Counted from the first letter of the stretch, positions 1,502 to 55,517 are shown. The stretch is 64,000 nucleotides of DNA from a virus (IMGVR_UViG_3300027708_000019), one strand, 5' to 3'. The notes: generated from the sequence alone by a model not told the origin. Made by a program: numbers and translations.

Positions 1502-1505
1502 AACA

Positions 1506-2447: not shown

Positions 2448-2482
2448 TTTAAGTTTCCTTGGTTAGATTATAAAGTTATTTA

Positions 2483-3790: not shown

Positions 3791-3810
3791 TTTTATTCTC
3801 CTTGTTTGTT

Positions 3811-6203: not shown

Positions 6204-6213
6204 ATTATTTCCT

Positions 6214-9575: not shown

Positions 9576-9576
9576 C

Positions 9577-10767: not shown

Positions 10768-10777
10768 AGTTTTCTAT

Positions 10778-12127
10778 TTAGGTAGGTTTAACATATTCAT
10801 CAAAATATCCAGTAACTTGGATTTTTCCAGTTGATGTTTCTTTTTTGACTAAACCTCCACCAGCCCCTTGTAATGTATACTCATCAAACTCACTAGAGTA
10901 TAAAAAATTTGGTGTAAGACTAATTGTAGCCTGAGTAACTTCGTCTAACTCTCCAGATATTGATAATACACCTGTTGATGTAATTCTTGATGCTATTACT
11001 ACACTAGGAGGTGCTGTAAACGTCCAACCTAAATTGTTTGCCCCATTGGTTGAGTGTGTGCCAGCATACCAGGCAGCACCACCTGTGGCGTTTGAATCTC
11101 GTATACTTAAATAATCCACACTCACAGTACCTGATGCCATGGATAGATTCCATCTTGTACCATTAGTAACACTCTTCAAAATCCATAGGCTTCCAGAACT
11201 TCCCGAAACTGTAAAATTGGACACGGTTTGAGTGGAACCTGCCTCAAAAGATATCGTTTTAACACCTTGAATATAATTTGTAGTGATGGTATTAAAAGTG
11301 TTGTTGCCAGTAATCGCTGAGACCTTACCCGTAATTGTTAAATTATAATAGGTGTATCCCATACCACAGAAAAAAGCGCCATATCCTGAGGTCCTACCGC
11401 CCATTTGTATAGTTGATGTTCCGGGATTTATAGTAATGGTGCCATCAGTTATTGGACTGCCAAAATTAATGTTCCAACCAAATGCATTGCCATCATCCCA
11501 AAGTTGCCAAGTTCCCGAACCCATGTTTATGGTGATGGAATTACCTGCGCCAGGATCAAAGATGTTGAAATCCATTGTTTGTATATTAAAATTATTTGCA
11601 TTAAATGTGCTATTAGCAGCTACATAGAATGTGAAACTAGCACCTGAATTGCTGTCTGGTTGAATACACAGGTTATCTCCCAGTGTGGTAGTTGTAGCAG
11701 TTGTACCATCTCCAACTGTTAAACCACTTATTGTTTTTCCTACAGACGTAAGTGTGCCTGTGCCTATCATGTTAACACCAAATCCTGACCCGCCAGATGA
11801 CCCTCCATAAGGAGTTAGAAAATATGTTCCACCACTGGACAATGTAACATTGCCATAAACATTGAAACCCAGTCCGTCAAAAAAGGCAGGTATTGAATTC
11901 AATGTTCCAGTGAAACCTGTGCAGTCTAAAGAAGCACATTCCACTGCACTGCCAGAAATAGTAAAACCAATTATAATTAATCCTGACCCTGAATTTGAAT
12001 CCAAAAAGACTGCATCTGCGGCAGTTGGTATACTGGCACCACCTGACCCACCAGAAGAAGTGCTCCAATGACTTGAGCTACTTCCATCCCATGTACCTGC
12101 GCCACCTACCCAATATCTATTAGCCAT
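10778..12127 (-). CDS. Tail-associated beta-helix/adhesin-like protein
   Basis: MANRYWVGGAGTWD...WSTSSGG...PTAADAVF N-terminus; C-terminal GELDEVT/FDEY repeats. Confidence 0.55.
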   Translation of the reverse strand: MANRYWVGGAGTWDGSSSSHWSTSSGGSGGASIPTAADAVFLDSNSGSGLIIIGFTISGSAVECASLDCTGFTGTLNSIPAFFDGLGFNVYGNVTLSSGGTYFLTPYGGSSGGSGFGVNMIGTGTLTSVGKTISGLTVGDGTTATTTTLGDNLCIQPDSNSGASFTFYVAANSTFNANNFNIQTMDFNIFDPGAGNSITINMGSGTWQLWDDGNAFGWNINFGSPITDGTITINPGTSTIQMGGRTSGYGAFFCGMGYTYYNLTITGKVSAITGNNTFNTITTNYIQGVKTISFEAGSTQTVSNFTVSGSSGSLWILKSVTNGTRWNLSMASGTVSVDYLSIRDSNATGGAAWYAGTHSTNGANNLGWTFTAPPSVVIASRITSTGVLSISGELDEVTQATISLTPNFLYSSEFDEYTLQGAGGGLVKKETSTGKIQVTGYFDEYVKPT

Positions 12128-12135
12128 TTAATTTA

Positions 12136-14394
12136 TTACCCAAAAATTGTATCTAAACTATTTGTAGTAGCATTATATACTTGATATACTGCGCTTACGT
12201 TACTTGCGTTTACGAAACCAACTTTACTTCCTGAACCTACATAAATGTTACCAACAACACCCAATCCACCACCAAGTTTTAATGAACCAGTAGTGCTAGA
12301 TGTAGAAGCTGTTGTATCAGAAAGAGTTGGAGCACCTGTAAAAGTGCCAGACAATGCACCGCTATTAATAGTTGGAGATGTTAATGTTAATCCAGCAAAT
12401 GTAGTTACTGTTGCGCCTAAAGAAACTGCTGTTGAACCAATAGTAACAGAACTGTTGGTCAACATGGTATTTGTTATAGAACTGGCACCCAACAAACCAG
12501 TAATATCTGCTTGAGCAACTGCCACAGTTCCAGTTACTAATCCCTTAGTGTTGGTAGTAATTTTCTTAAATGTGCCAGTACCAGAGTCAGTGATAGTTGC
12601 TAGTGTTAATGCGATAGTTCCAGTGTTTAACGCAGTTGCTGGAGCAGTAGCATCACCAGTAACAGCAAGTGTTTGCGTATATACAAGTTGTTTATCATTC
12701 GTTACATTACCTAAACCAACATCTGTGGATGTTAAAGTAACTACACCAGTTTTACCAGCGACAGAATCAACTGCTCCGCTGGTAATATAAACATAAACAG
12801 AACCTGACCATCTATATGCTTTACTTGTATCTATGGCAATATAGATCTTTCCTGTTTCGCCAGTCGCAGGGAATGCTGCAAGGTTTGCATATTCAAGAAC
12901 ATCATCAACATATGATGGCAAGTACGTAGAAGAAATTTTAGAAGTAGCATCAAGTGGCGCAACACCATTGGCAGCACCAACTAATGATGACGCAACACGA
13001 GCAGTAGAGTCAACTGCGTTAATCGTAATATTAGCAGATCCATCAAATGAAACACCATTAATGGTACGAGCAGTTTGTAATATAGTTGCTGATCCAGCAT
13101 TGCCAGTAACAGTTGTTTGAGCGGTAGAACTAATTACACCGCTGGCAATAGTGATTGTTGTACCATCAACTTTAACACCGCCAAGAACTGTTGTTGATGA
13201 GGTTGGTAGTGAGTAAGCATTAGGTATGTTTGTTAGATCATTATAACTACCAGAGAACAGAGTTGGTTTACCAGTTAGACTAGCGTATGCTCCATCAAAC
13301 AATGTTGGCTTGTTGGTTAAGTCATTATAACTTCCACTGAACAATGCTGGTTTGTTTAGTATCTGTGCTAGTCCAGAACTGGCATTCCAATCACTATTAA
13401 CTTGTGCGGCAGGTATTGTTGGCTTGTTAGTTAAATCAGTATAACTTCCACTGAATGGTGCGGCTACACTGATAACACCTGCGTTGATAGTTATATTGCT
13501 ACCAATCTTTACTCCACCTAATATTGTGTCAGTTGCTGTTGGTAAAGTATAAGCACTGGGTATTGTTGGCTTGTCAGTTAAGTCAGTATAACTACCTGAG
13601 AACAATGTAGGTTTGCCAGTTAGACTAGCGTATGCTCCATCAAACAATGTTGGTTTACCAGTTAGACTAGCGTATGCTCCATCAAACAATGTTGGTTTAC
13701 CAGTTAGACTAGCGTATGCTCCATCAAACAATGTTGGTTTGTTTTTAATAAAACTTTTTAAAGTGTTGTCAGTAACATTCCAATCAGATTGTATCTGAGC
13801 AACACCACCTGAACCACCACTTACTGCAGAGAATTCAAACTTTTTACTTGTACCATTGTACCCAAGATAATATCCATCTTGAATAGTAGAACGATCGATG
13901 TCGTCAAGATATCTTAGGTTTACTTCACCAGATCCTGGACCTGTGGCAGCAATGCGTCCGATTGCTTGCTCTAAAAATTTAAGTTTCTTTTGAATGCCAG
14001 TAATGTTGGGATCTACTGGTTGTGGTGCTGGCTGTTGAAAAGAATCTTTATTGACTACTTCTTTTTCAACAATTACTTCTTTTTCAACAATTACTTCTTT
14101 TTCAACAATTACTTTTTTAACAGGTTGTTTCTTTTCAACAAACAACTCCATCATTTCACCAATATCATTATTGGCTTTGAGACTTTCTTTAACAGCTTTT
14201 AATGCTTTTCCTGCAGGTGTTTTTTCTTGTTCTTCTTTGAGTTTACGTTTCTCTTCAGCAGCAGCTTTGAATAGCGTAGAAAGATTTACTGGCTGTTCTG
14301 GCTCTGACTTTTGTTGTAGCAAAAGTTCTTCCTGCTCTTTGAGTTTACGTTTCTCTTCAGCAGCAGCTTTAAATAGATCACCAAGATCAGTCAT
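12136..14394 (-). CDS. Tail fibre protein with internal repeats
   Basis: Coiled-coil N-terminus, GSGEVNLRYLDD, QSDWN and FSGSYNDLTNKP repeats, LPSYVDDVLEY, SVAGKTGVVTL. Confidence 0.65.
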   Translation of the reverse strand: MTDLGDLFKAAAEEKRKLKEQEELLLQQKSEPEQPVNLSTLFKAAAEEKRKLKEEQEKTPAGKALKAVKESLKANNDIGEMMELFVEKKQPVKKVIVEKEVIVEKEVIVEKEVVNKDSFQQPAPQPVDPNITGIQKKLKFLEQAIGRIAATGPGSGEVNLRYLDDIDRSTIQDGYYLGYNGTSKKFEFSAVSGGSGGVAQIQSDWNVTDNTLKSFIKNKPTLFDGAYASLTGKPTLFDGAYASLTGKPTLFDGAYASLTGKPTLFSGSYTDLTDKPTIPSAYTLPTATDTILGGVKIGSNITINAGVISVAAPFSGSYTDLTNKPTIPAAQVNSDWNASSGLAQILNKPALFSGSYNDLTNKPTLFDGAYASLTGKPTLFSGSYNDLTNIPNAYSLPTSSTTVLGGVKVDGTTITIASGVISSTAQTTVTGNAGSATILQTARTINGVSFDGSANITINAVDSTARVASSLVGAANGVAPLDATSKISSTYLPSYVDDVLEYANLAAFPATGETGKIYIAIDTSKAYRWSGSVYVYITSGAVDSVAGKTGVVTLTSTDVGLGNVTNDKQLVYTQTLAVTGDATAPATALNTGTIALTLATITDSGTGTFKKITTNTKGLVTGTVAVAQADITGLLGASSITNTMLTNSSVTIGSTAVSLGATVTTFAGLTLTSPTINSGALSGTFTGAPTLSDTTASTSSTTGSLKLGGGLGVVGNIYVGSGSKVGFVNASNVSAVYQVYNATTNSLDTIFG
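13616..13740. repeat. Three tandem 42-bp repeats (LFDGAYASLTGKPT), fourth copy near 13271-13308
   Basis: Unit ccagttagactagcgtatgctccatcaaacaatgttggttta repeated near-identically. Confidence 0.9.
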
Positions 14395-14398
14395 ATCA

Positions 14399-15505
14399 TT
14401 ATACTGCTGTAAAGGTAGTCGTCAATGGCACCAAGGTAATTGCAGTTGAGATCTTGTTGGTTGTTCCATATTGGAAAATTGGTCCAGAATATAATACCAC
14501 ATTACCAGCAACCCCATTGATAGCACGATTAGTTGCCTGCGCAGCTGGTACGTTAAATGTACACACACCAAACTGCATGGTTGCTGAGCCACTCATTGAG
14601 ACGCCATAGGTATTGGCACCTGTGCCAGTGTTAGTAATAATACATACACCCATACCCCACTGTACCGTTCCACTTAGAGTAACCACAGCACCTGTGTTGG
14701 CTTCTACTCCACATCTTAGCATATTGCCTGTAGAATCATTTGCCATATTAAGCACTTGTCCTATGCCATTGGTTTCCAGATTGCTTATGCTACAGAATCC
14801 ACGCTGAATGTCTATTAGATATACGGAACCACTGGCTCTAGCCATGGTACAATCATACATTTCCACTCTGCTGCCAGTGCCAGTATTATCCGCATAAACA
14901 CAACTCTTGGTAGCATTGCTTTGATAGCAGTACACATCGTCTAGGTAAAGTTTTGATGGATTGGCGCCAGTCACTTGAATAGCATGATTTGTACTGTTGG
15001 GGTTGACAGCAACATTAAACAAACCAAATCTATTGACGTTTATGGCGTTTGCGCTGGAGTCTGCTGGGGTAATAGTAACATACCCATTAATCCAGATTGG
15101 TACGTGTCCAGCATCAGGAGTAGCAGCACCGATAAAAATATTTCCACGAGTCAGTGCCACGTTTTCTGTAGTTGAACTCAGTAGTTGAATAAACTGTGGG
15201 TTACTAACAACAGCACCACTGATACTGATTGTTAAAGTGTTAGCAGCAATTCTTGCTTCAATATATGCTAAAGCAGCAGTAATAGTTTTAAATGGTTTGG
15301 CTACACTTCCATCTGATGTGTAAGTATCAGTTCTACTTGGATCAACAAGCCAATAGTTATTTGGTGGAACAACTGCGCCAAGTACATAGTTCTTTAATGC
15401 TAATGCTGTTAATTTTTTATTAACACTGCTTTCTACTACTGGAAAAGTTGTTGCATCAGTGGCTGCTGCCAACGATGTCATTGCTGATATTTTTATTTGT
15501 GTCAT
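14399..15505 (-). CDS. Tail spike / beta-helix structural protein
   Basis: MTQIKISAM start, DGSVAKPFKTITAAL motif of pectin-lyase-like beta-helix proteins. Confidence 0.55.
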   Translation of the reverse strand: MTQIKISAMTSLAAATDATTFPVVESSVNKKLTALALKNYVLGAVVPPNNYWLVDPSRTDTYTSDGSVAKPFKTITAALAYIEARIAANTLTISISGAVVSNPQFIQLLSSTTENVALTRGNIFIGAATPDAGHVPIWINGYVTITPADSSANAINVNRFGLFNVAVNPNSTNHAIQVTGANPSKLYLDDVYCYQSNATKSCVYADNTGTGSRVEMYDCTMARASGSVYLIDIQRGFCSISNLETNGIGQVLNMANDSTGNMLRCGVEANTGAVVTLSGTVQWGMGVCIITNTGTGANTYGVSMSGSATMQFGVCTFNVPAAQATNRAINGVAGNVVLYSGPIFQYGTTNKISTAITLVPLTTTFTAV

Positions 15506-19646: not shown

Positions 19647-20321
19647 TTACTGAATATTTAGGTATTCGGCACGCTGTTGATATTTTCTATCCCAGCGTAG
19701 GATTTCCTTGTAGAGATACTTGAGAGGATAGTCAAATCCGTCAAACGACTTCTTGATTGCCTTCAATGTAGGTGAGTAGCGTCCTATGCGTTTAGCACGG
19801 AGCATTTCGTGAACTGGTTTTTTGAGATTAACTGATCTCATTTCCATAAGAATACAGTGAGAATATGCTTGTATCTCACACCAAGCAGCATAGTATTCTC
19901 TATCCTCTTGTTTGTCTGGGTCGTTGCTTTCTCTATGTAGCAACACAAACTCATACTCATTTTCATGGAAAGACCACTGCATGTGGTGAATATACTCATG
20001 CATCATGGTGATAATAATTTCAAATTTGAACTTGTCCCATTCTGCGTTGGTGAAGATTCGTGGACGAACTGTAAAGACTTGAATCTTTTCTTCGTCAAAG
20101 GCAAACTCGCCTGATACAGTAAAGTCCGAATTTTTGGATCTTTCTGTATACAGGGTTGTTTTATAGTAGCGTGCTAGATAACGCTTCAGATTGATTCCGA
20201 GATAGTCATCTCGGTATTTGTCCAACTTGCGCCACAGCTGTGATGGAACAAGTTTGGGCAAATCTACATTCAACAGTTCGGTAAAATTACCATTATAATT
20301 GCTTAAGAATTGCCCTTTCAT
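19647..20321 (-). CDS. HExxH zinc-metallopeptidase-like protein
   Basis: MMHEYIHH plus downstream EIQAY; own consensus promoter at 20342-20370. Confidence 0.55.
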   Translation of the reverse strand: MKGQFLSNYNGNFTELLNVDLPKLVPSQLWRKLDKYRDDYLGINLKRYLARYYKTTLYTERSKNSDFTVSGEFAFDEEKIQVFTVRPRIFTNAEWDKFKFEIIITMMHEYIHHMQWSFHENEYEFVLLHRESNDPDKQEDREYYAAWCEIQAYSHCILMEMRSVNLKKPVHEMLRAKRIGRYSPTLKAIKKSFDGFDYPLKYLYKEILRWDRKYQQRAEYLNIQ

Positions 20322-20341: not shown

Positions 20342-20370
20342 ATTATACTATAAAATACAGGAAATGTCAA
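20342..20370 (-). promoter_or_regulatory. Sigma70 early promoter
   Basis: TTGACA-17-TATAAT perfect. Confidence 0.8.
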
Positions 20371-20371
20371 G

Positions 20372-21721
20372 CTACCCGAAGAACTCGTCCAGTCCTTGGG
20401 TTGTTGGTGCTTCGAAATGTTCATCGAACATATTTCTTGCATTTCTGGGGATATTTGGATCATAATTCGACTTCGTCTTGAGTTCGTTTAGGAAACCTGT
20501 AGTTCTACCCATAGCCAAGTCGATGTAGTGCTGAGCAACTACTTTTCGATCAAATTGTTTAATCAATTCGTAGTTATTTAGCTGAATCTGTCTGTAGTCT
20601 TGTTCGCGCATGAAACAATAGTTAGCGATCGCTTCGCCATATTCTTTTGGTGTAAAATCCTTTTTGAGCATACAGTAGTTAACACCTGCCTTCAAAACAG
20701 TTCCCATACCCTCATCGTTGTTGGAAACCCCATAATTTACAGCGATGGGCACAGTCCCGATGCGCATAGCATCAATGACAACCCTATTGAAATGCTCACC
20801 AAAAGTGTTAGACCAGCTAGGATCAACAAGAAATTTAGAAGTTGCCAAAATTTCGTCACGTTTTGCTCCAGAAATAAAACCAAGATATTGAAAATTGCCT
20901 GAATTTTCAGCATTCTCCCAAATACGTTTACCTTCTCTATCTGGTGTAACATCTGGATCATACTGAGAAGTCGCAAAATATTCTTCTTTACATTTATCTT
21001 TGGACATCATATATGCTGCTTCAATACCATATCCACCAACCAGTGTTTTTACATCTTTCATGTAAGGAACAGCACGAACCAAATCATCGACACGTTTCCA
21101 ACGCTTAAATGTTTGGATAGATAAAATCTTATTTTCACGCTGATTGAATGGTGGTGTTTCAGGAATACCAGCAATGTCTTGTGGGTTTAAAATCAAGGCA
21201 CGTGGTACGTCCATAAAATCAGCTGAGTCATATGCTGCTGGATGTACACAAGCCAAACCAGCAAAGTGTTTCTCAAACAAAACAATCCAAGGATATAACT
21301 TTTTAAGATTAGCATCATGAATAATTGGAACCTGCTTTGATGTAATTTGTTCAATCATCGGCAGCCATTCTAGATACTGCTCAGTGTCTTTATTTTTAAA
21401 ACCAAAAATAGACTGCCAAATAACCAAGTCGTGTTTGTTAGCATCTTCAACAAACTGATCAATAGACTCTTTAACTTTATACGAATAGTATGGAGCAATC
21501 CAGCCATCGCCTTGATGAACAGGATAACCTGTACCGATACCAATTTCGTAGCCTTCTTTTAACTCAGAAGGAATTTCAACTGGCTTCACTTGTTTATTTG
21601 GTTTAAGATAAGCAAATGTTACCTCATGACCAATTTCTTTCAATCCTGCTACGAGATGTTCACAGTGATTGATAATACCTCCAAAGTTGTTGAAGGTGTG
21701 CATTACCATCATAATCTTCAT
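20372..21721 (-). CDS. GT-B fold (GT4-like) glycosyltransferase, probable DNA glycosyltransferase
   Basis: MKIMMV...FGGI..H, KRWKRVDDLVRA, EHFNRVVIDAM..G..PI motifs; C-terminal LDEFFG. Confidence 0.75.
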   Translation of the reverse strand: MKIMMVMHTFNNFGGIINHCEHLVAGLKEIGHEVTFAYLKPNKQVKPVEIPSELKEGYEIGIGTGYPVHQGDGWIAPYYSYKVKESIDQFVEDANKHDLVIWQSIFGFKNKDTEQYLEWLPMIEQITSKQVPIIHDANLKKLYPWIVLFEKHFAGLACVHPAAYDSADFMDVPRALILNPQDIAGIPETPPFNQRENKILSIQTFKRWKRVDDLVRAVPYMKDVKTLVGGYGIEAAYMMSKDKCKEEYFATSQYDPDVTPDREGKRIWENAENSGNFQYLGFISGAKRDEILATSKFLVDPSWSNTFGEHFNRVVIDAMRIGTVPIAVNYGVSNNDEGMGTVLKAGVNYCMLKKDFTPKEYGEAIANYCFMREQDYRQIQLNNYELIKQFDRKVVAQHYIDLAMGRTTGFLNELKTKSNYDPNIPRNARNMFDEHFEAPTTQGLDEFFG

Positions 21722-21903
21722 AGTGTTTTCCTTAGTTCATAACTTTTATGTTGTTGTTCAAGCCACTCTTGTGCTTCTATTTCGCTGTCAAAATATGGAC
21801 TCACCAAATTACGATAAGTTCTATTGATCCAAAAATAAGTATAGGTGTGCATACCAACGTCCCTATACTTAATTAGTTCCATGCCATCAAGTCCAGAGTC
21901 CAT
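21718..21903 (-). CDS. Hypothetical protein
   Basis: Coupled ORF with VSPYFDSEIEAQEW motif. Confidence 0.45.
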   Translation of the reverse strand: MDSGLDGMELIKYRDVGMHTYTYFWINRTYRNLVSPYFDSEIEAQEWLEQQHKSYELRKTL

Positions 21904-22735
21904 GGCGCACCTTGATAAGTCGTATCATCATTTCTTCGTCTTCAGTCTCATACGCTTGTTCAATTTTATGACACTCATCAAGCATTTTAGAAACTCTTTC
22001 TTTTTCTTCTGGTGTTTTTTCTTCACGACCCATAAAGCCATATGGTTCGCCATCTTCATCGCGATCGTTTCTACGCTCATCGCAGTAAGCAGACCATCCT
22101 GATGCTTCGTGAGGATCAACACGTTTTGGTCTTTCAATTGTCCACCAATTATATAGATCTAGAATTTCTTGTGCTTTAATTGCTTGGTGAGTTGGTTTAC
22201 CATAATCAGGACTATCTTTCTCTACCCACTGTTCATCATGAACCAACTTACGTTGCCATTCTAAATTAGCAAGACCACATTCAGGTTTGCGCCATGTGCG
22301 CCAGCGGAACCATCCCCAAGCCCACCATGGTGCAACAAATTTCTTACGAGCATCTTCATCCCATGCTACATGCCACCATGCTAATTCAATTTCAACAAAA
22401 TCGACAAGTTCATTAAACAAACAAGGAAGAAACCTATTACCCACGTCACACCAACTACCAGGACTGATATCACGAGCATGGGCAGTAAGAGAATGAGTGC
22501 GAGTAACAAATCTATTGTTAATATAATATTTGAGAGCATAAAGTTTGTCCACTGGATAAAAGATTGTTTTTTGAATAATATCAAGTCCTTCTTCTGCCAA
22601 CCAGTAGCGGAAAGGATGTGACTTTTTTGCTTGCTTGTTCCATTTGTGCCAACCTTCGCTGGTTTCAGCAGTTGGTTTCATTGTGCCACGAAGCCAGTCG
22701 GCAAACTTAGAACATGTCCAATAATTGTTTCTCAT
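21887..22735 (-). CDS. Conserved Trp-rich phage hypothetical protein
   Basis: SD GGAG and consensus promoter at 22753-22781. Confidence 0.6.
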   Translation of the reverse strand: MRNNYWTCSKFADWLRGTMKPTAETSEGWHKWNKQAKKSHPFRYWLAEEGLDIIQKTIFYPVDKLYALKYYINNRFVTRTHSLTAHARDISPGSWCDVGNRFLPCLFNELVDFVEIELAWWHVAWDEDARKKFVAPWWAWGWFRWRTWRKPECGLANLEWQRKLVHDEQWVEKDSPDYGKPTHQAIKAQEILDLYNWWTIERPKRVDPHEASGWSAYCDERRNDRDEDGEPYGFMGREEKTPEEKERVSKMLDECHKIEQAYETEDEEMMIRLIKVRHGLWT

Positions 22736-22777
22736 AATTACTCCAAAAGTATATTATACTATGTATTTGAGTTTTTG

Positions 22778-24100
22778 TCAAGCAAAGAATTCATCTAAGT
22801 CAGCGTTATTTGCTGCTGGGTGATACTTAGCAACCATCGCATCGCCATTTGGTTGTTTACGAAGATAGTCATACCATTCTTCATCATCCCACATTCCTGG
22901 ACTTACGCCATTCCAAAGTTTCTTCCACAACTTATGTTCTTTATTTAGACGACGTGATTCAACATACTCATAACGAGCATTCTCATATTCCCAACTACCA
23001 AGTTGCATCATATTTTCACGAAGATAAACAACAAGAGAAATACGCTCTGAACCTTCTTCACAAACAATCGGTGTGTTACCATGGATGACTTCATGATTGT
23101 TTACCAATAACAAATCTCCTGGACGAACATTAACAGCAGTGCGAATCTCTGGGAAAATTAAATAACCACCTGTATATTTACCATCATTAGACAATGTCAA
23201 CAGATTAGACATACCTTCAGTAAAATCACCAGCATCACGATGAGCAGCTGTACGGAATGTTTTATTAACTGTTACTGTAGTAAATGGTGTTGCCTCAATA
23301 ACAAATTTCTGATCAATCTTATCAGTTGCTGTTTTCTGATTAGCATAACGCTGTGGTAGTAGTGTTTTAAAACCACGTGCCAATGATTGTAGAAATGGAT
23401 ATGCCATTCTAAACTTCTCAGGATTATCTCGAGTATAAGTTGTCGCACGACCAAAAGGAATTCTAGGATAACGATCAAACCAACCTGCGATACCAGAATC
23501 AACTGGATTACCATAAGATGTTTCACTAATCATAGTCATAACTTCTTCTGTTGCTTTCGCACGTTCTTCTGGATTGAGTTTGATGATTGAATCAACCCAC
23601 TCATCGAAATTAAACTTGTTACGGAAACGTGAGATAACCCAAACATTATTTTTACCAGAACCCAATGCTTTCAAACGTGATTCTTGCGTTGGATACTTTT
23701 CTCTAATTGTGGTAATAACATCATCATCAGACAATCGAGCAAAACGAGCAGACAGCAACTCACTAATCATTTCTTCTTGATAGTTAGTAACCCACTCACG
23801 TCCTTCGCCTGTGACAGAAGTTCCTGCTTTGATACCAGAAGCAAGTCCACGATTTTCAGTACGAACTGCTGCTTCACGCAATCCAACATATGCTTGTTCC
23901 TGTTCTTCTTTGGTGAAGAAGTTCTTACGGAATTTAAAAGCGATCTTTGCTTCGCTGTGTGGATTGTCGTCTTCATGATCAGGTGGCAAATAGAAATCAG
24001 TATCTTCCTCAACCAAAAGATCATAATGAGATTCATCTACGAACATACCAAGTAAATGTTCTGAATCGTGAATTTTATCTGCTACAATAATTTTTGTCAT
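22778..24100 (-). CDS. TET/JBP-family 2OG-Fe(II) dioxygenase (5-methylpyrimidine oxygenase)
   Basis: TPFTTVTVNKTFRTAAHRDAGD (HxD), VRPGDLLL..HEVIHGNTPI (distal H), ERISLVVYLRE (2OG Arg); ATGA overlap with gp41. Confidence 0.8.
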   Translation of the reverse strand: MTKIIVADKIHDSEHLLGMFVDESHYDLLVEEDTDFYLPPDHEDDNPHSEAKIAFKFRKNFFTKEEQEQAYVGLREAAVRTENRGLASGIKAGTSVTGEGREWVTNYQEEMISELLSARFARLSDDDVITTIREKYPTQESRLKALGSGKNNVWVISRFRNKFNFDEWVDSIIKLNPEERAKATEEVMTMISETSYGNPVDSGIAGWFDRYPRIPFGRATTYTRDNPEKFRMAYPFLQSLARGFKTLLPQRYANQKTATDKIDQKFVIEATPFTTVTVNKTFRTAAHRDAGDFTEGMSNLLTLSNDGKYTGGYLIFPEIRTAVNVRPGDLLLVNNHEVIHGNTPIVCEEGSERISLVVYLRENMMQLGSWEYENARYEYVESRRLNKEHKLWKKLWNGVSPGMWDDEEWYDYLRKQPNGDAMVAKYHPAANNADLDEFFA

Positions 24101-25491
24101 ACCTTAAATCCCTCAAAATTGTTTTCTTTCATTCTTTTGCCAAACTTAGACTGATCAAACAAAGGTGTGTCATCATCAACAGTTCCCTGTCCTGCGATAT
24201 TCATTTGAGCACTCATCTCAACATCATACAATCTCATTTGCTTTCTATCAATACCAATAACAAAACGCTTGAAATAATTTGGATCTGAATAACGATTCTT
24301 CAACTGTTTTACCATAACCTGATTCATCTGATCCAACTCTTCAGTCGCAATTAACGCAACCATCAAATCAGCAGTTGCTGGCAAACCAAACGATTCTGAA
24401 GTATCCTCAAGTCCTGGATCTGTGTTAGCATATCCAGAACGAGTCGTTTGTGTTGCGGAAACAATTGGCACTTTATATTCACCAGCCAAACCACGCAACT
24501 CTTCAGCAATCGACTTAATATATGTATAAGAGTTTACATTGGCTCCCATACGAATTCTTTGAGAAGAACAAATGTTCAAGTAATCAATGTAAATAATATC
24601 TGGTTTGAAATTACGTTTCATCTTAAGTTCTTCAATCAATGCTCGGAAATGACCAGAATGAGCAGAAGAAGTTGGATATTCTTTAACAATGAATTTACCT
24701 TGTGTTTTGTTACGGACTTTCTCAAGTCTAGCATCAAATACACGTTTCTCAACCATAGGAATTGATTCAATTGACAACTCAAGTAAGTTCGCATCAATAC
24801 GCTCAGCAATCTTTTCTTCAGCCATCTCCATAGTTATGTATAATACATTTTTACCAGTCAACAAATTAGCAGCAGCAAAATGACACATCGCCAAAGATTT
24901 ACCAACACCTGTACCTGCCAAAATAATGTTGAGGGTTTTCTTACTCAAACCACCATTCGTGATTTTGTTAAGGATCTCCAAGTCGAAAGGAATTTTCTCT
25001 TCAACTCTGTGATAAAAATCATACCTCGCATCTGAGTCATCAAGATAGTCATGTCCAACATGTGAGTCGAATGTGACACCCAACGCTTTAGACAATAAAT
25101 CTGGGATCGCATCTTGTGTTCTAATCTTATCTTTACCATCAATAATTTTAATTGAATCGATAATCGCATTATAAACAGCCTTGTCTTTACAAAACTTTTC
25201 AGTAGAAGTTGTGATCCAATCAATGTGAGTTTTCTCAGAATTGGTTGAATCGAGAATCTCATTCGCAAGTCTAACTTGATCTTCAGTTACATCGGTGCGA
25301 TTTGAGATTTCAATTTTCAATACATCTTTTGTTGGTGCTTCATTATATGTGACAAAGAATTTTGTTATCTCTTCAAAAACTACTCTGTCAGTTCTATCGG
25401 TAAAATATTCTGGCTGAAGGAAAGGCATAACCTTTCTTGAATATTCTTCATGACACAATAAATTACCGAAGATTTGGTCTTCAATTCGCAT
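24097..25491 (-). CDS. gp41: Replicative DNA helicase
   Basis: AGTGVGKS Walker A, YITMEMAEE, SESFGLPATAD, KQLKNRY. Confidence 0.95.
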   Translation of the reverse strand: MRIEDQIFGNLLCHEEYSRKVMPFLQPEYFTDRTDRVVFEEITKFFVTYNEAPTKDVLKIEISNRTDVTEDQVRLANEILDSTNSEKTHIDWITTSTEKFCKDKAVYNAIIDSIKIIDGKDKIRTQDAIPDLLSKALGVTFDSHVGHDYLDDSDARYDFYHRVEEKIPFDLEILNKITNGGLSKKTLNIILAGTGVGKSLAMCHFAAANLLTGKNVLYITMEMAEEKIAERIDANLLELSIESIPMVEKRVFDARLEKVRNKTQGKFIVKEYPTSSAHSGHFRALIEELKMKRNFKPDIIYIDYLNICSSQRIRMGANVNSYTYIKSIAEELRGLAGEYKVPIVSATQTTRSGYANTDPGLEDTSESFGLPATADLMVALIATEELDQMNQVMVKQLKNRYSDPNYFKRFVIGIDRKQMRLYDVEMSAQMNIAGQGTVDDDTPLFDQSKFGKRMKENNFEGFKV

Positions 25492-26536
25492 CTACTTCTT
25501 CCTCTATCTCTTGTGGGGTATCTTCTTCACTACCATAATTATACTTGCTTTTGCAGTATTTGTCAAGTTGTTTCAAGATATCTTCGGAGAAAAATTCAGA
25601 AGGATTATTTGCGATATTTTTGCCGAACACTTTACGTCCATCGTGGACTTCAATTCGACCACCTTGGGATTTCCAAATTCCTGCCTCAATCGCAAGATCA
25701 GCAAGTCCGTGGTATCGGTCAAGACCTTTGGTAAATGAAAGTTTAGTTTCGACCATGGATTTCTCGCGAGTGAAGCGAGATTTTTCCAGTTTACATTTTA
25801 TAATATTACCAACCACTTCGGTGCCGTCTTTATCTTGCGATTTTGACAGAAACACAATAGTAGATGCTGCGTACTTAAGACCATCGCCACCACCCATAGT
25901 TTTCGTTGGCATATACGCACCAACAACAGCATAGGTATGATTAGTAACAACCATAGCAACATCCAACTTTGATAGTTTCAATGATAGAACACGAAATGCT
26001 CCACGAATTAACTGAGCACGTGTCATATCACGAGTATCTTTACCTTCAAGTGTATCTTCCATCTCTTTAGAAGTTGAGAGCATACCCAATGAATCAAGAA
26101 AGAACATCAATGGTGGACGATCTTTCTTTGGTGTTTTTTCATAAGCATCTAAAACTTTAGTAGCTTGAGTGCGGAATTCTTGAATCGTAGAAACAGGAAC
26201 AATCATGAAACGCTTGGTATCAATACCACGATCAACCAACATATCTTTGTTCAGTGCTCCTTCTGTTTCAAAGTATATAACTCCAGCCTGTTCATTAGTT
26301 CGTAGAAAATTGTTCGCAATGCCAATAGCATAAAATGTTTTTCCTGTGGAAGACTCACCAGCCAGAGCTGTAACTTTGTTGCCAGGAAGACCACCATAGA
26401 TGCTACCGCTGACAAGAGCATTAAGGGAATAAGAACCAGTGTCGATAAAACTACTAGTATCACCAACCACACCATCATCAGCAAGTCCCGCATATTCATT
26501 ATCAAGTTCCTTTACGATATTCTTTAAAAAACTCAT
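25481..26536 (-). CDS. uvsX: RecA-like recombinase
   Basis: GESSTGKT, DSLGML, DMTRA, MGGG. Confidence 0.95.
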   Translation of the reverse strand: MSFLKNIVKELDNEYAGLADDGVVGDTSSFIDTGSYSLNALVSGSIYGGLPGNKVTALAGESSTGKTFYAIGIANNFLRTNEQAGVIYFETEGALNKDMLVDRGIDTKRFMIVPVSTIQEFRTQATKVLDAYEKTPKKDRPPLMFFLDSLGMLSTSKEMEDTLEGKDTRDMTRAQLIRGAFRVLSLKLSKLDVAMVVTNHTYAVVGAYMPTKTMGGGDGLKYAASTIVFLSKSQDKDGTEVVGNIIKCKLEKSRFTREKSMVETKLSFTKGLDRYHGLADLAIEAGIWKSQGGRIEVHDGRKVFGKNIANNPSEFFSEDILKQLDKYCKSKYNYGSEEDTPQEIEEEVDAN

Positions 26537-26834: not shown

Positions 26835-29336
26835 TTAAAAGAATTCTGCCAAGTCATTCTTTTCGTCAACAGACCAGCCAATCGAATTCATAATTGCGGA
26901 AAGTGGGTCAAGGAAAACTTTTTCAAATTGTTTTTCATAATCTACGTATTTATGTAGGTCTAACTGTTTGGGTAATGTTGTAGTAAACGCAATAACATCT
27001 TCACGAATAGTATTTGGTTCACGAAGATAGATAAATTTAATTCTATCGCCTTCACGAATCGGTTGGTATAATTCTGTTAACCCAAGTTCCTTAATGTGAT
27101 GATTGAACATCAACGCACCTCGAACATGAATCGGTGTTGATTTGCGATAAATCGAACCAGAATCAGAATACTCTTTCAAATTGTTTACGCTTCGTGGGAA
27201 TGCGATATCTTCAATCGGTAACCCATAAAACTCTTTTCTAAAATCAACAATAAATTTACGTAATTGAATCTCATCACCAGCAATCAAAATCTTCATTGAA
27301 TCTTTTAATTTACCACGAACTACCATAGGGGTTGACGACTTAACCATCTCAAGACCCATGATTTTCATTTTGGGTTCAGCATATTGAACACCCTCAGAAT
27401 TGTGTACGTTAAGAACATAACGCTTCTTCGCAGTCCACACACCCTTGTCGGCAATAACTTCACGCTTCATAATCATTTTCTGAGAGAATGCGTTTTGTCT
27501 TTGAGCCAAGTCAGAATAACACTTATCTATGTATAATTGAATTTTATCTTCACAAATCTTATCAATATATTCAACAACTTTTGTTTTATCTTTCTGTTGT
27601 TCTTTCGTGAATACTTTATCAACAAGTGGACCAAATCGTAGATATACAGAGTCAGTGTCAACAGCAATTACATAATCTTCTTTTTCAGTCTTGAGTAATT
27701 TGTTGAAGTATTCATTAAATTTCTTTTCCATCCAACGAATAGACAACTGACCACTCAACGTGATACCTTCAGACATGCGTTTGTCATAATATCGGAAATA
27801 TTGATTAGCCAACGCACCATAAGCTGAGTTCAACGCAATCTTAAGAGCCATCTGAAGATTATTCAATCGAGATATCTCATTTGTTAGAGATTCGTCTTTT
27901 GTGTTTTCATATTCTTGTTGAATCTTCAACATTTGTTTCTTTGCTTTACTGCGATTGATGTACATAGTTTCCATCAACTCAGGCAAGAAACCTTTGATGT
28001 CTTTACGGTAACACCAACCATTCGCAGTACAAGATAAATCTAAATCATGAAAACCACCAGTTTCTTCATGCTCAAGGAAATACCCAACACCACCAACGTG
28101 TTTATAACCTGCGTCCATTGTTTCAGGACTAATGTTATATTGCATAATCAAATGAGGATATAGACTGTTCAAGTCAAAAGAAACAACCCAGTTATGCATA
28201 CCAACAAGTGGTTCTTTAACATAAGCACCTTCAATAACAGAATCTTTATCATTGTGTTGTTTGTTTGGAATCACAATCTTTTTAGAACGCAAATGATTAT
28301 AGATGATTGTATCCCACATTCTAACTTGAGAGAACACATCCTCATAGTTTACCTTTGCGTTATACGCCATAACCATAGCCAATTCAATCAACTTCATCTT
28401 GTCTTCAAGTTTATCAACAAGCACAGTATCATGAATGTTATAATCAACAAACTTCTTCCATCCGTAGGTATAGAAATCTTTGAAAGTATCGTATTCAGAA
28501 TAATCTAATTTGTTTTCACCAAGTTCAACAAACGCAATGTGATCCAACTTGTATGATTCTTGCATTGAGTAAGTAAACTTTTTATACAAGTCAATATAAT
28601 CAAGAGCAGAAATACCTGCGATGTCATATGAGATTTCTTCAGATCCCTTAACATGAATCCTACGTTCGTTTATAATACCCCATGGGGATAGTTGCTTAGC
28701 ATGAGATTCGCCAAGCACATTCATAATCCTGCGTGTTAGATACGGAATATCAAAGAAGTTGATGTTCCAGCCTGTAACGATGTCGGGATAGTTTTCTTTC
28801 CAGAAGTCCAGGAAATTCATAAGAAGTGCTCGCTCACTTTCGCAGTGATGAAATCTTACTTCTCTATTTCCTGTGTATGGATTTTTACCAAAGGTATGAA
28901 TCTCTTTGGTTTTGTTGTCCATAAGTGTGATGAGAAGGATTTCCTCATTAGCAGTTTCTATGTTAGGAAATCCTTCCTCGGTTGTGGTTTCAATATCAAT
29001 AGAGAAACATTTGATTAGATCTTTATTGAATGTGATGTCAGTAGGATATGTATCTGAGATATACTGGTAAGCAAAGTTTGTGTTACCATATACCATGAAT
29101 CCTTGAACGTCTTTATAACGATCGATAAATTCTTTTGAGTCGCGAATAGATCCTGGACGAATTGAGTAAACAACCTCACCATCAAGTGTACGGAAAATTT
29201 CACCAGCATTTTTACTCTTAGATGATGCGTAGAGTGTTGGCTTGAAATCTATTTTGTCTGTATATTGTTTTCCGTTTTGATATCCACGTACACAAAGTTT
29301 GTTTCCCAGAGGGAACACATTTGTATAAAATTCCAT
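26835..29336 (-). CDS. gp43: Family B DNA polymerase
   Basis: DIET exonuclease, SFDLNSLYP, KIALNSAYG, DTDS, KKRY; uninterrupted. Confidence 0.97.
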   Translation of the reverse strand: MEFYTNVFPLGNKLCVRGYQNGKQYTDKIDFKPTLYASSKSKNAGEIFRTLDGEVVYSIRPGSIRDSKEFIDRYKDVQGFMVYGNTNFAYQYISDTYPTDITFNKDLIKCFSIDIETTTEEGFPNIETANEEILLITLMDNKTKEIHTFGKNPYTGNREVRFHHCESERALLMNFLDFWKENYPDIVTGWNINFFDIPYLTRRIMNVLGESHAKQLSPWGIINERRIHVKGSEEISYDIAGISALDYIDLYKKFTYSMQESYKLDHIAFVELGENKLDYSEYDTFKDFYTYGWKKFVDYNIHDTVLVDKLEDKMKLIELAMVMAYNAKVNYEDVFSQVRMWDTIIYNHLRSKKIVIPNKQHNDKDSVIEGAYVKEPLVGMHNWVVSFDLNSLYPHLIMQYNISPETMDAGYKHVGGVGYFLEHEETGGFHDLDLSCTANGWCYRKDIKGFLPELMETMYINRSKAKKQMLKIQQEYENTKDESLTNEISRLNNLQMALKIALNSAYGALANQYFRYYDKRMSEGITLSGQLSIRWMEKKFNEYFNKLLKTEKEDYVIAVDTDSVYLRFGPLVDKVFTKEQQKDKTKVVEYIDKICEDKIQLYIDKCYSDLAQRQNAFSQKMIMKREVIADKGVWTAKKRYVLNVHNSEGVQYAEPKMKIMGLEMVKSSTPMVVRGKLKDSMKILIAGDEIQLRKFIVDFRKEFYGLPIEDIAFPRSVNNLKEYSDSGSIYRKSTPIHVRGALMFNHHIKELGLTELYQPIREGDRIKFIYLREPNTIREDVIAFTTTLPKQLDLHKYVDYEKQFEKVFLDPLSAIMNSIGWSVDEKNDLAEFF

Positions 29337-32600: not shown

Positions 32601-33023
32601 TTACTTCTTAACTTTTTTCCCAATATTATACTTGGGTACAAGTTCCCATTCGTCTTTCTCTTTGAAAGACAATACTTTAATTTGTGACAATGATGCTTGT
32701 GGTTCAGCTTCTGCTGGTTTTATAATTTTCAACAGTCCCCAATCTTGAAGCAACACAGCAACTGTGTTCCTACGTTCAATATCATTGTTTGTTAAATTTG
32801 ATTCTTTTCCATCCAAAGCAAATAGTTCTTTGAAATGCACCAAGAAATATCTACCCTGTTTGTGTAGAATATGACATGACTGAAACAACTTATGCTCTTT
32901 ACGTGATGCGATCCCAATACGTGTCAATGTTTCCTTAATCTTAAGGAAATTGTCTGGTTCTGGGAGTGTCACTTCGAGCATACTGTCTGATGTCCAATCA
33001 TAATAAACAGTTTCAACACTCAT
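32601..33023 (-). CDS. regA: Translational repressor RegA
   Basis: FLKIKETLTRIGIA, QSCHILHKQGRY..VHFKELF. Confidence 0.95.
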   Translation of the reverse strand: MSVETVYYDWTSDSMLEVTLPEPDNFLKIKETLTRIGIASRKEHKLFQSCHILHKQGRYFLVHFKELFALDGKESNLTNNDIERRNTVAVLLQDWGLLKIIKPAEAEPQASLSQIKVLSFKEKDEWELVPKYNIGKKVKK

Positions 33024-33403
33024 TTTCTTCCACCTTTATCCATTTTTCGTTTTATCAGTTGTAACTGTTCTTCTGTCAAAATGTCGAGAACAGTCATTGC
33101 TTTACGCTTACTATAATCATAGTATTGCATTACCATTTCCAAGTCATCTGTTTTTGGGACTTTCTCAGCCCATTTACTGAATCGTTTTTTCTTGGTAATT
33201 GTATTTAGCAAATACGAAAATTGCCAATCTTTCGGAATGGCACGATGGATATTCATCTGATTGGCTTGAAGTACTGTATCTGGAAAGTACGCCAAACCTC
33301 TGTTGATGATGAAAGAGTTATAGTCTTTTTCAGCTTGTGGTTCTTTTATTAGATCCTTGTTTTTGTTGTCGCAGATCGCATTAATAAAATCAAATGGGGT
33401 CAT
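33020..33403 (-). CDS. gp62: Clamp loader small subunit
   Basis: PFDFIN, YNSFIINRGL, KKRFSKW; synteny 45-44-62-regA. Confidence 0.9.
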   Translation of the reverse strand: MTPFDFINAICDNKNKDLIKEPQAEKDYNSFIINRGLAYFPDTVLQANQMNIHRAIPKDWQFSYLLNTITKKKRFSKWAEKVPKTDDLEMVMQYYDYSKRKAMTVLDILTEEQLQLIKRKMDKGGRK

Positions 33404-33410
33404 GATAACC

Positions 33411-34352
33411 TCACTTGAATTTACAGTTTGCCATAATCTCTGTCAAAGCAGCAACATTATTAACTTCAATGTCAGCAACGAATGCTGCTTTATACTGATA
33501 ATCAGCAAGTATCAACACAAGCTGAGGAACAGATTGTCCCTCAACAATATCTGCAGCAGTGTCATAAAGTCTTCGGAATAATACCGAAGTTTCAATGTCG
33601 TTGTTTCTAGCAACCCACTTACGTGCTTCAATAAAGTTTTTCTCCTTGAGATAACCAACCAACTCTTTCATGGTTTCATCGGACATGTTGGCCAAAATGC
33701 CAGCATCAACTTTACCACTAACACTATATCTTTGAAGTTCGTTAAGAACTCTACGGAAGTCTGGGAAAAATGTTTCTACAACTTTAGCAACAACTTTAGA
33801 ATCAGATTCTACACCTTCAGATGTTAGAACATCATTAACCCTGCGGAAAAATGATGCTGCGATCTTTGGTTTATCTTTGCTTTCAATCTTAAAGTCTACG
33901 ACTGCACATCGACTGTGGAGTGGGGCAATGATTCTGTTTTTGAAGTTACATGTAAGGATGAATCGACAGTTGTTTGAAAACTCTTCGATAAAAGCACGCA
34001 AGGCTGCTTGTGTGTCTGGCGTAAGATAGTCGGCTTCGTCAAGGATGACGACTTTTGCACCTTCTGCGGTGATACTAACAGACGAGGCAAATTGTTTGAT
34101 TTTTGTACGTAAGACATCGATTCCTCTTTCTTCAGATCCGTTGATAAACAAATAATCAGCACCCAACTCATTACACAAAGCACGTGCCACTGTAGTTTTA
34201 CCTACACCAGCACTGCCTGAGAAAATAAAATTGGGCAACTGTCCCTCAGCAATATATTGCTTAAATGTATCTTTGATTTGTTGCGGTAGGATGCAATCAT
34301 CAATAACTTGTGGGCGATACTTCTCGCACCAGAGAAACTCTTCACGACTCAT
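33411..34352 (-). CDS. gp44: Clamp loader AAA+ subunit
   Basis: EKYRP, GVGKTT, ILDEAD, LHSRC. Confidence 0.95.
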   Translation of the reverse strand: MSREEFLWCEKYRPQVIDDCILPQQIKDTFKQYIAEGQLPNFIFSGSAGVGKTTVARALCNELGADYLFINGSEERGIDVLRTKIKQFASSVSITAEGAKVVILDEADYLTPDTQAALRAFIEEFSNNCRFILTCNFKNRIIAPLHSRCAVVDFKIESKDKPKIAASFFRRVNDVLTSEGVESDSKVVAKVVETFFPDFRRVLNELQRYSVSGKVDAGILANMSDETMKELVGYLKEKNFIEARKWVARNNDIETSVLFRRLYDTAADIVEGQSVPQLVLILADYQYKAAFVADIEVNNVAALTEIMANCKFK

Positions 34353-34370
34353 AATATAATATCCTTAAAA

Positions 34371-35030
34371 TTATTCAGATGTTGAATCAGATTCAACTGC
34401 TACATAATATGATAGACTTGTTTTTGCAGATTTAAAACGACAAATTTTCATCTTAGCAATAGAAACATCATATGCTCCTGGAAGCATTTTGAAGTTTTCA
34501 ATTTTAAGGTTTGCTGTAAAGTTCTTATCAGTTGTACCAACCTCAACTTCAAATTTATTTGTTAGAGGATTTTTCTTATCCACAACAACAGCATTTACTT
34601 TGCCATTTGAACCGATGAAAGATACATCAGATACTTTAAGAACACCAGCAGCACGGATCAAGTTTGATAGATCGCCAGCTGAGAGTGAGAAATTGATTTC
34701 CGCTTCTGGGAAATTGATTGCCTTGGCAGGTGTCTTCAAAGTAGTTTCTTCCGCAGCACGGTAACTAATTTGATTCTTACCTTCTTTGATTGTTACAGTG
34801 TTTCCACTGAAAGATAGATCTGGGTCATTGAACAATGACAATGTGCCAAGAAATTCATTGATATCATAGATACCAAAATTTTGTGGGAATGTTTCAGGAA
34901 CAATTACTTCCCCAAACACAGTTTTGTTTTCAGTCATCGAATAGATGCTGTTACCTTCACGAAGCAACAGGTTTAAATTGATAGAAGCAAAGTTCTTCAA
35001 TACCTCTTGCGTTTCTTTACTAATCTTCAT
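34371..35030 (-). CDS. gp45: Sliding clamp
   Basis: LKNFASIN, FGIYDINEFL, Y(Y)VAVE; consensus promoter at 35072-35100. Confidence 0.92.
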   Translation of the reverse strand: MKISKETQEVLKNFASINLNLLLREGNSIYSMTENKTVFGEVIVPETFPQNFGIYDINEFLGTLSLFNDPDLSFSGNTVTIKEGKNQISYRAAEETTLKTPAKAINFPEAEINFSLSAGDLSNLIRAAGVLKVSDVSFIGSNGKVNAVVVDKKNPLTNKFEVEVGTTDKNFTANLKIENFKMLPGAYDVSIAKMKICRFKSAKTSLSYYVAVESDSTSE

Positions 35031-42532: not shown

Positions 42533-42616
42533 GACAGTGGGTCAATAACGCATAGCAGGATGCCGTGGGTAAGGTTTTCGTTATTTCCCCCACAACTGGC
42601 CAAATGCTACACTGTC
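42533..42616 (-). ncRNA. Candidate structured RNA with pseudoknot
   Basis: Nested stems GACAGUG/CACUGUC, UAGCA/UGCUA, GUGGG/CCCAC; loop AAUAACG pairs CGUUAUU. Confidence 0.5.
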
Positions 42617-54767: not shown

Positions 54768-54964
54768 TAGCTGAAGTCCAAGTCTGCGTCAGGATATCCT
54801 TCGGGAATTTCTATTTGTCCTTGTTCGACAACTCTATCTCCCACTCTTTTTGCGAATTCATCCGCATCTTGTTTTGATCTATAAAATTTAGATAGAATAG
54901 CACTTTCCGCAGATGATTCTTGCGGACGAAATGTTACTTTATATAAGAATTTTGTTTCACTCAT
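54767..54964 (-). CDS. Hypothetical protein
   Basis: Coupled ORF between gp55 and gp47. Confidence 0.5.
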   Translation of the reverse strand: MSETKFLYKVTFRPQESSAESAILSKFYRSKQDADEFAKRVGDRVVEQGQIEIPEGYPDADLDFS

Positions 54965-55517
54965 TACTGTCCTCTTCTAAAAATGTTTCAAGTGAATTTT
55001 TGGGTTTCTTTTTTGCTGCTTTCTTCACTGGCATATTATAATTGGCATCGTTATTGCTACGTAAATAATCCATCATCTGATTAGTATACTCACCACCTTC
55101 GTCTTGTTCTTGGAGTTCGAACATTTCGAATGGCATCTCCATAATCATTTTATTCTTGACGTATGTTTGTTTCTTTTCTTTTTGGATTTTTCGAATGAAT
55201 GCATAGTAAATGATTTGAGTAAAGTAAGCGAATGGGTTACTTGACTTTGTGGGATCAAAATTGTGGATGTACTGTAAACAGTTCTCAACACCATCGAGAA
55301 TCATATCTTCTCGGTATGTATAATTGATGAAGTTTGCTTTATACGATAAATGTGTGGCTATCTTTAATAGACACTCACCTATGTACTCAGGTACTCTTGG
55401 TTTATCTTCGCCAGCTGCTTCTGCTTCGATTACAGATTCTCTATACTTTTTAATTGCTACTAGAAAATCAGCATTGCTTACATAATGTGCTTTGGCTTTG
55501 GGTATTGCTTCGGTCAT
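54957..55517 (-). CDS. gp55: Late-transcription sigma factor
   Basis: HYVSN..F, YIGEC..KIA, NPFAYFTQI.YYAF.R.I..EKKQ; promoter at 55545-55573. Confidence 0.95.
   Translation of the reverse strand: MTEAIPKAKAHYVSNADFLVAIKKYRESVIEAEAAGEDKPRVPEYIGECLLKIATHLSYKANFINYTYREDMILDGVENCLQYIHNFDPTKSSNPFAYFTQIIYYAFIRKIQKEKKQTYVKNKMIMEMPFEMFELQEQDEGGEYTNQMMDYLRSNNDANYNMPVKKAAKKKPKNSLETFLEEDSNE

Follow-up and report, generated by a model that had tools for sequence, protein, structure and literature searches.

A TET/JBP dioxygenase and a predicted glycosyltransferase with polymerase-type C-terminal tails in a T4-like phage: a candidate clamp-tethered route to DNA hypermodification

The 64,000-nt stretch of the virus IMGVR_UViG_3300027708_000019 analysed here (hereafter, the window) is part of the genome of an uncultured T4-like myovirus, whose relatives have genomes of 165–174 kb. 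The region under study, 20372–24100, encodes on the minus strand a TET/JBP dioxygenase (TET) and, downstream of it, a predicted GT-B glycosyltransferase (GT), which end in almost the same short peptide. This peptide is also the end of gp43, the DNA polymerase of the phage, exactly at the position of the clamp-binding tail of the T4 and RB69 polymerases. The reading we favour, and which we consider reasonably probable, is that of a post-replicative module in which both enzymes would be tethered to the gp45 sliding clamp, converting thymine (T) into 5-hydroxymethyluracil (5hmU) and this, in turn, into glycosyl-5hmU. The chemistry is already known, while no published description was found of the proposed clamp tether on such enzymes.

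In such a module, the dioxygenase would be made early, together with the replisome, as the overlap of its start with the stop codon of gp41 suggests, and would oxidise thymine already present in the phage DNA to 5hmU. The GT-B enzyme would then add a sugar to the new hydroxyl group, leading to a base-J-like product. Both enzymes would dock on gp45 by means of a linker-borne [S/T/D]-L-[D/E]-x-F-F motif, the peptide used by the phage polymerase, and the clamps, once loaded at the fork, would stay behind on the new DNA, recruiting the two enzymes and sliding them along the nascent duplex.

Two enzymes with a common C-terminal peptide

The 440-aa open reading frame (ORF) at 22778..24100 (minus strand) belongs to the TET/JBP (5mYOX) family of Fe(II)/2-oxoglutarate (2OG) dioxygenases. 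Residues 222–362 match the Pfam family Tet_JBP (PF12851) with an E value of 1.2e-25 and 90 bits (cut-off 34.9), and H287-x-D289, H340 and R353, which make up the Fe(II) triad and the 2OG-binding arginine, are invariant in an alignment of 68 sequences, down to 27% identity. The AlphaFold2 (AF2) model has a mean predicted local distance difference test (pLDDT) of 93.8, with a drop to 69 over the ten C-terminal residues, and a predicted template modelling score of 0.89, and its top Foldseek matches are CcTet, human TET2, CMD1 and NgTET1 (E values from 2e-11 to 7e-9, probability 1.0). A profile score above threshold, the HxD...H and Arg residues and a double-stranded beta-helix (DSBH) fold like that of the solved TETs are found together in the same protein, and the HxD...H...R motifs which a first-pass annotation, made from the sequence alone, had read in this ORF were borne out.

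The protein starts with an NRG motif followed by a long variable insertion (approximately residues 95–190), the DSBH core, a helical C-terminal extension reaching to H427-P428, a variable linker and the tail. Compared with the usual phage enzymes of ~300 aa, the additional parts are the long insertion after NRG, the helical extension, the linker and the tail, and in a tree of TETs the ~440-aa forms build a clade apart from most ~300-aa forms. Many of the latter (representatives P0376–P0509) end in another signature, ...EELERAK(x)R(x2-3)GDPLY/W/F, possibly the C-terminal extension that PMC13229309 relates to ParB, or else a different docking motif.

The second enzyme, encoded by the 449-aa ORF at 20372..21721 (minus strand), 1,057 bp downstream of TET, is classified by its sequence as a GT1/GT-B glycosyltransferase (PF00534, GT4-like), as had been proposed for a gene ~1 kb downstream at the first pass. 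It matches Glycos_transf_1 (PF00534) with 37.5 bits (cut-off 26.4) as well as PF13692, and residues G308, E309, H310, F311, N312, R313 and D317 of its 'EX7E-like' motif are invariant in 37 homologues. A comparison of both proteins with the PDB was informative for one of them: the TET profile matched TET2 (3e-8), whereas the GT gave no credible match to PDB sequences, either as a single sequence or as a profile, and so has no solved relative there. In addition, the GT matched neither TAGT (PF20691) nor the solved DNA glycosyltransferases.

The C-terminal ends of gp43 (NDLAEFF; motif codons at 26838–26855), TET (ADLDEFFA, with DLDEFFA at 22781–22801) and GT (QGLDEFFG, with GLDEFFG at 20375–20395), all on the minus strand, share the pattern given above. 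The strict motif occurs only in these three proteins among the 88 non-overlapping ORFs of the window, with 0.05 expected from the motif frequency in the proteome. Moreover, the tail codons differ between the three genes, which indicates a likeness at the peptide level and not a DNA repeat. A related motif is present in the late sigma factor gp55 (54957..55517, minus strand; phrog_234, 8.4e-61), where SLETFL (54978–54995) lies behind a basic linker, six residues before the end, and is followed by six acidic residues; its relatives have NLESFL and SLEVFF, that is, [S/N]LExF[L/F]. The near identity of the TET and GT ends, their match with gp43 and their resemblance to gp55 had already been noticed, and the sequences are indeed in place.

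The motif is also conserved among homologues, a point on which the first-pass annotation had made its proposal depend. The tail is kept in 114 of 120 TET homologues (65–100% identity) and in 115 of 120 GT homologues (53–98% identity), with a column entropy of at most 0.9 bit at the L, F and F positions against 2–3 bits in the linker, the five preceding residues being highly variable. These tails show two features of a T4-type clamp-binding epitope: they match the cognate gp43 end, and between them and the fold lies a divergent, flexible linker, as the entropy values and the drop in pLDDT indicate. At 20 IMG/VR loci, and likewise on two additional contigs, the tail is found on gp43, TET and GT, and never on gp41, on UvsX, whose orthologues have acidic, motif-free tails, or on the products of the neighbouring orf282 and orf224.

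Three records stand in for the window's own genome, namely G001, the nearest one, with 99% identity over the parts it has in common with the window, and G002 and G003, two relatives with complete genomes. In G002 and G003 the strict pattern picks gp43 and GT, and TET in G002 only, the G003 TET having the variant tail LGDEWFA, outside this pattern. The only other strict match in these two genomes, on a 236-aa baseplate protein (PF12322), was rejected as a false positive because the C-terminus of this protein belongs to the folded Pfam domain. A co-variation of FF and LF endings between gp43 and the enzymes does not hold either, given that in the relatives L057 and L058 gp43 and TET end in FF and GT in LF; both forms seem to be tolerated. 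In a tree of 131 representatives at least five gains or losses of the tail fall on well-supported branches, although a FastTree calculation on fragments is no proof of independent gains.

Some other ends in the window recall the tail. The 65-aa ORF right after gp55 (54767–54964, minus strand), with no family match, has a conserved C-terminus of acidic and hydrophobic residues, ADLDFS (AELDLL and AELDFS in relatives), and could be a gp33-like clamp-binding co-activator. A 73-aa ORF (42615–42836, minus strand), also with no family match, ends in KLIEYFGGE (LIKAFGGSE in a relative), which is only loosely tail-like. Finally, a 752-aa tail-fibre-like protein (12136–14394, minus strand) ends in SLDTIFG, similar to T4-type clamp tails, probably by chance, since it is a structural protein.

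The sliding clamp as candidate docking partner

The proposed partner, gp45, is encoded at 34371..35030 (minus strand; phrog_223, 1.8e-67), and its profile matches T4 gp45 (1czd) and RB69 gp45 (1b77/1b8h) at ~1e-41. The clamp loader genes, gp44 (33411–34352; phrog_168, 2.5e-122) and gp62 (33020–33403; phrog_225, 4.7e-40), are found on the same strand. The family-B DNA polymerase gp43 (833 aa; 26835..29336, minus strand; Pfam DNA_pol_B_exo1 and DNA_pol_B) ends in ...EKNDLAEFF, which aligns residue for residue with the gp43 ends of T4, ...EEKASL(+5), and RB69, ...KKASLFD(+4), and which we take on this alignment as the reference clamp-binding peptide of the phage. In T4, gp43, gp33 and gp55 bind the clamp through C-terminal epitopes that can be exchanged for one another and are carried by divergent flexible linkers (PMC2988020), and RB69 gp45 has been co-crystallised with an 11-mer of gp43 (PMC2988020; structure 1B8H).

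Tailed TETs are also encountered in other gp45-encoding phages, with the ends TLGDFFV (DLP6), SLEEFFV (C48C1), GATLF (Cr30) and NLNDFLGE (Melnitz), which resemble the gp43 ends of the same phages (TLDSFFA, TLEDFFG, DLSSLFD and TLEDFFG, respectively). The TETs of S-CBWM1, HTVC112P and P12024L are without the tail and have other ends, and gp45 was not found in these three phages with a profile that matched Cr30 and Melnitz. This co-occurrence of tail and gp45 covers a small sample of seven phage genomes.

The interaction was also addressed by complex prediction. The pair formed by gp45 and TET residues 396–440 scored 0.44, the best of three controls scoring 0.00, with runs agreeing in at least 81% of the contacts and a partner pLDDT of at least 47. 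In a benchmark of 80 solved complexes and 110 mismatched pairs, 58 of the former and 2 of the latter attained the pass mark; the passes of 0.60 or less, among which 0.44 falls, came from only 7 solved complexes and from both of the mismatches, which makes this a weak pass. In addition, it may come from the predictor's memory of a related structure, because RB69 gp45 has already been solved in complex with the gp43 peptide.

The weakness of this prediction is in line with a different view, according to which the tail would dock on some other replisome partner (e.g. gp32, gp59 or the clamp loader), or would be a turnover or localisation signal, the enzymes not being loaded on the clamp at all. 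Acidic-aromatic C-termini do make other replisome contacts in other phages, as the T7 gp2.5 and gp4 tails show. Nevertheless, the position of the gp43 motif, precisely that of the T4/RB69 clamp tail, the related motif which gp55, like that of T4 (PMC2988020), carries after a basic linker, and the fact that the tail follows the presence of gp45 across the seven phage genomes make another partner improbable. Overall, the TET and GT tails are likely gp45-binding peptides.

Substrate, acceptor and gene neighbourhood

No C5-methyltransferase (C5-MT) had been seen in the window at the first pass, and the search with PF00145 extended this absence to G001 and three relatives that are 90–100% complete, the same search having found matches in 10 of 14 control genomes. 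The N6/N4 (PF01555) and Dam-type (PF02086) methyltransferases are likewise absent from these genomes, as is the ThyA family (PF00303), which includes the dUMP/dCMP hydroxymethylases. The relatives encode ThyX, the gene lying outside the window. The presence of ThyX together with the lack of both ThyA-family enzymes and methyltransferases means that dTMP is made with no known pre-replicative hydroxymethylation, leaving thymine in DNA as a self-sufficient substrate. Phage 5mYOXs without a neighbouring C5-MT have been described as T-dioxygenases, often paired with a GT, a C5-MT being present in only ~6% of such phage pathways (PMC13229309). The locus also has the traits given for ParB-independent T-dioxygenases (clade C2, PMC13229309), that is, no neighbouring C5-MT, no ParB (PF02195 is absent in G001–G004) and a syntenic GT 1 kb downstream. 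Thus, where the first-pass annotation had left the choice between T and 5-methylcytosine (5mC), the gene content favours the former, and the TET substrate is likely thymine rather than 5mC.

The same tethered enzymes could, in principle, act on 5mC, leading to 5-hydroxymethylcytosine (5hmC) and glycosyl-5hmC, with the methyl group supplied by the host or by an unrecognised phage methyltransferase. The closest solved folds of TET are 5mC dioxygenases, the short Melnitz TET, with its similar tail, is encoded directly behind an HhaI-like C5-MT, and the methyltransferase searches covered G001 and its relatives, not the window's genome itself. We nevertheless give this route little credence, as no C5-MT was found in nearly complete relatives by a search effective in most controls, enzymes of this type have proved to be T-dioxygenases where no C5-MT adjoins them (PMC13229309), and sparse-site methylation by the host would provide little protection.

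As regards the GT, its acceptor would be 5hmU in DNA, as can be inferred from the synteny with TET and from the clamp tail. The two enzymes might instead belong to separate pathways, TET alone yielding 5hmU as the end product, or acting on RNA, and GT modifying the host envelope or a protein; envelope enzymes do dominate the GT family, the source records annotate the GT accordingly, DLP6, Cr30 and C48C1 have TET homologues without a GT of the window type, and the unrelated orf282 parts the two genes in the window, but this is hardly plausible, since TET and GT are adjacent or have only orf282 between them in every relative possessing the GT (they abut in L057 and L058), a DNA-clamp tail makes no sense on an envelope enzyme, and other sugar genes stand beside TET in DLP6 (TAGT and a nucleotidyltransferase), C48C1 and S-CBWM1.

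Several points weigh against the clamp-tethered thymine route as a whole. Besides the weak complex prediction, the absence of methyltransferases is a property of close relatives and not of the window's own genome, and 5mC made by the host is a possible alternative substrate for TET. When assayed in E. coli, several phage TETs of clades C1 and D showed no activity (PMC8256090). PF00534 enzymes act mostly on cell-envelope glycans which, together with the lack of a solved GT relative, means that DNA as the acceptor rests on context and tail. Moreover, according to promoter-swap experiments in T4, the alpha-glucosylation level is not set mainly by clamp binding (PMC13216743), and the tether may consequently matter less than the conservation of the tail suggests.

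Isolated phages offer other TET cassettes, and sugar genes adjoin TET in those where the window-type GT is missing (DLP6, C48C1 and S-CBWM1); indeed, no homologue of the GT was found in DLP6, Cr30, C48C1, Melnitz or S-CBWM1. The cultured Stenotrophomonas phage DLP6 (L001, KU682439.2) has at 4057–8347 a cassette of TAGT, a 563-aa sugar nucleotidyltransferase and TET. Its TAGT (PF20691, unrelated to the window GT), two genes upstream of TET, ends in DLSSFFN and is, by its sequence, an independent case of a predicted DNA glycosyltransferase with a polymerase-type tail. In the database the DLP6 TET is annotated as 'SNF2 DNA repair protein', and the TAGT and the nucleotidyltransferase as hypothetical. 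In C48C1 a UDP-galactopyranose mutase gene lies beside TET. In Synechococcus phage S-CBWM1 (L059), 2875–6285, a full-length tail-less TET homologue is followed by TAGT, a phosphatase and a glucose-1-phosphate thymidylyltransferase. Methylophilales phage Melnitz-3 (L062, MZ577098.1), 1–3528, encodes the HhaI-like C5-MT, itself tail-less, and then a 328-aa TET ending in NLNDFLGE, between gp43 and recA, a cassette whose sequence looks like a 5mC-route counterpart.

In the window, TET and GT are part of a minus-strand replication block with the order gp43, a small ORF, UvsX, gp41, TET, orf282, orf61 and GT. The UvsX recombinase, a context gene without tail motif, is encoded at 25481..26536 (minus strand; Pfam RecA, 1.2e-13), and the replicative helicase gp41 at 24097..25491 (minus strand; Pfam DnaB_C, 9e-20), its stop codon being overlapped by the TET start as ATGA, in agreement with the translational coupling noted at the first pass. 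Between the enzymes, orf282 (21887..22735, minus strand) encodes a Trp-rich, conserved, phage-only protein without tail, for which no Pfam or PHROG match was obtained, its Atlas neighbours being viral hypothetical proteins only and its AF2 model poor (pLDDT 64.7). It is missing from L057 and L058, where TET directly abuts GT, and is thus probably not essential to the module. The small orf61 (21718..21903, minus strand), weakly conserved, overlaps both of its neighbours.

A perfect sigma-70 consensus promoter read from the sequence, TTGACA-N17-TATAAT (20342..20370, minus strand), begins 1 base past the GT stop codon, ahead of orf224 (19647–20321, minus strand). This suggests that the gp41-TET-GT unit closes with GT and that orf224 has an early-type promoter of its own. 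The product of orf224, which falls in phage-only clusters and is syntenic behind GT in all relatives, contains an HEYIHH motif, and the Atlas connects it only faintly with SprT-like metalloproteases (score 0.85; 21% of members). The window from 1 to ~7 kb (1–6800) and parts of ~9–16 kb (~9000–15500) do not align to G001; they hold tail-fibre and structural genes, a hypervariable host-range region. When the 3.7-kb region under study was compared by blastn with 50,697 phage records, 0 matches were obtained, and the isolate relatives appear at the protein level only.

Known systems and significance of a clamp tail

Phage pathways combining TET/JBP enzymes and GTs on T or 5mC have been published (PMC8256090, PMC13229309, bioRxiv 10.1101/2023.12.21.572611). 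The window locus shares with them the TET/JBP core, the variable insertion between NRG and DSBH, the lack of a neighbouring C5-MT and of ParB, the associated GT and the post-replicative logic. It differs in its longer TET (~440 against ~300 aa), with the helical extension, the linker and the clamp-type tail, and in its place within a T4-type replication block. Clamp binding by the enzymes is unmentioned in these three works, where the word 'clamp' refers to gene-neighbourhood lists or to ParB. The nearest precedent is the T4 alpha-glucosyltransferase (alpha-GT), which binds gp45 according to Sommer 2004, as cited in PMC13216743, where the interaction was confirmed by pull-down. There, as would be the case in the window phage, a glycosyltransferase acting on DNA binds the sliding clamp of a T4-type phage, and glycosylation has been proposed to be concomitant with replication. 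T4 alpha-GT (PF11440), in contrast, acts on 5hmC incorporated before replication, whereas the window GT is an unrelated PF00534 member with a canonical polymerase-type tail and, in the window phage, the oxidase which would make the hydroxymethyl group is tailed too. Therefore, the clamp-loaded post-replicative route put forward at the first pass has gained support from the tails and is, at the same time, less unprecedented than it appeared, given the published TET and GT pathways and the binding of T4 alpha-GT to gp45.

The tails themselves are like the T4/RB69 epitopes of gp43, gp33 and gp55 in being short hydrophobic-acidic C-terminal peptides behind a divergent linker; the consensus here is [S/T/D]L[D/E]xFF, and its carriers are DNA-modifying enzymes instead of a polymerase or transcription factors. 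The kinetoplastid base J system (JBP1/JBP2 and JGT) also relies on the oxidation of T to 5hmU by a TET/JBP enzyme followed by O-glycosylation, but it is eukaryotic, is targeted by J-binding or SNF2 domains and not by a clamp, uses another GT family and modifies a small fraction of T. In eukaryotes, DNMT1 is brought to the replication clamp PCNA by a short linear motif (PIP-box) for maintenance methylation. DNMT1 is a methyltransferase, and its likeness to the window enzymes is one of logic only. Finally, the ParB-dependent phage T-dioxygenases (PMC13229309) are 5mYOX enzymes with a separate DNA-associated partner and a subclass-specific C-terminal extension, the partner being a ParB homologue, whereas in the window phage, with no ParB in its complete relatives, it would be gp45. 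For TET/JBP enzymes, and for PF00534 and TAGT transferases, no publication was found that describes a clamp tail of the polymerase type.

Why and how phages use post-replicative instead of nucleotide-pool hypermodification has been left open (PMC13229309, section 12). With a clamp-type tail on the oxidase as well as on the transferase, a concrete answer that lends itself to testing is at hand, namely that the enzymes would ride the replication clamp; should the tails be dispensable, the finding would shrink to another TET and GT cassette. A broader proposal, whose chances we regard as evenly balanced, is that gp45 may be a general hypermodification tool-belt of T4-like phages, a portable [S/T]L[D/E]xFF tail having been put repeatedly on non-homologous enzymes, that is, the long and short TET/JBP forms, the GT-B transferase and the DLP6 TAGT, and that oxidation and glycosylation would be processive on the clamps left behind the fork. 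If this were true, the clamp would correspond in function to the ParB partner required by other phage T-dioxygenases, and it would account for the speed that a post-replicative route needs in order to modify an entire genome. The tail also provides a simple marker by which DNA-modifying enzymes can be recognised in the sequences of T4-like genomes, and the recruitment of a DNA-encircling partner, gp45 here and ParB elsewhere, may be a general rule for 5mYOX enzymes.

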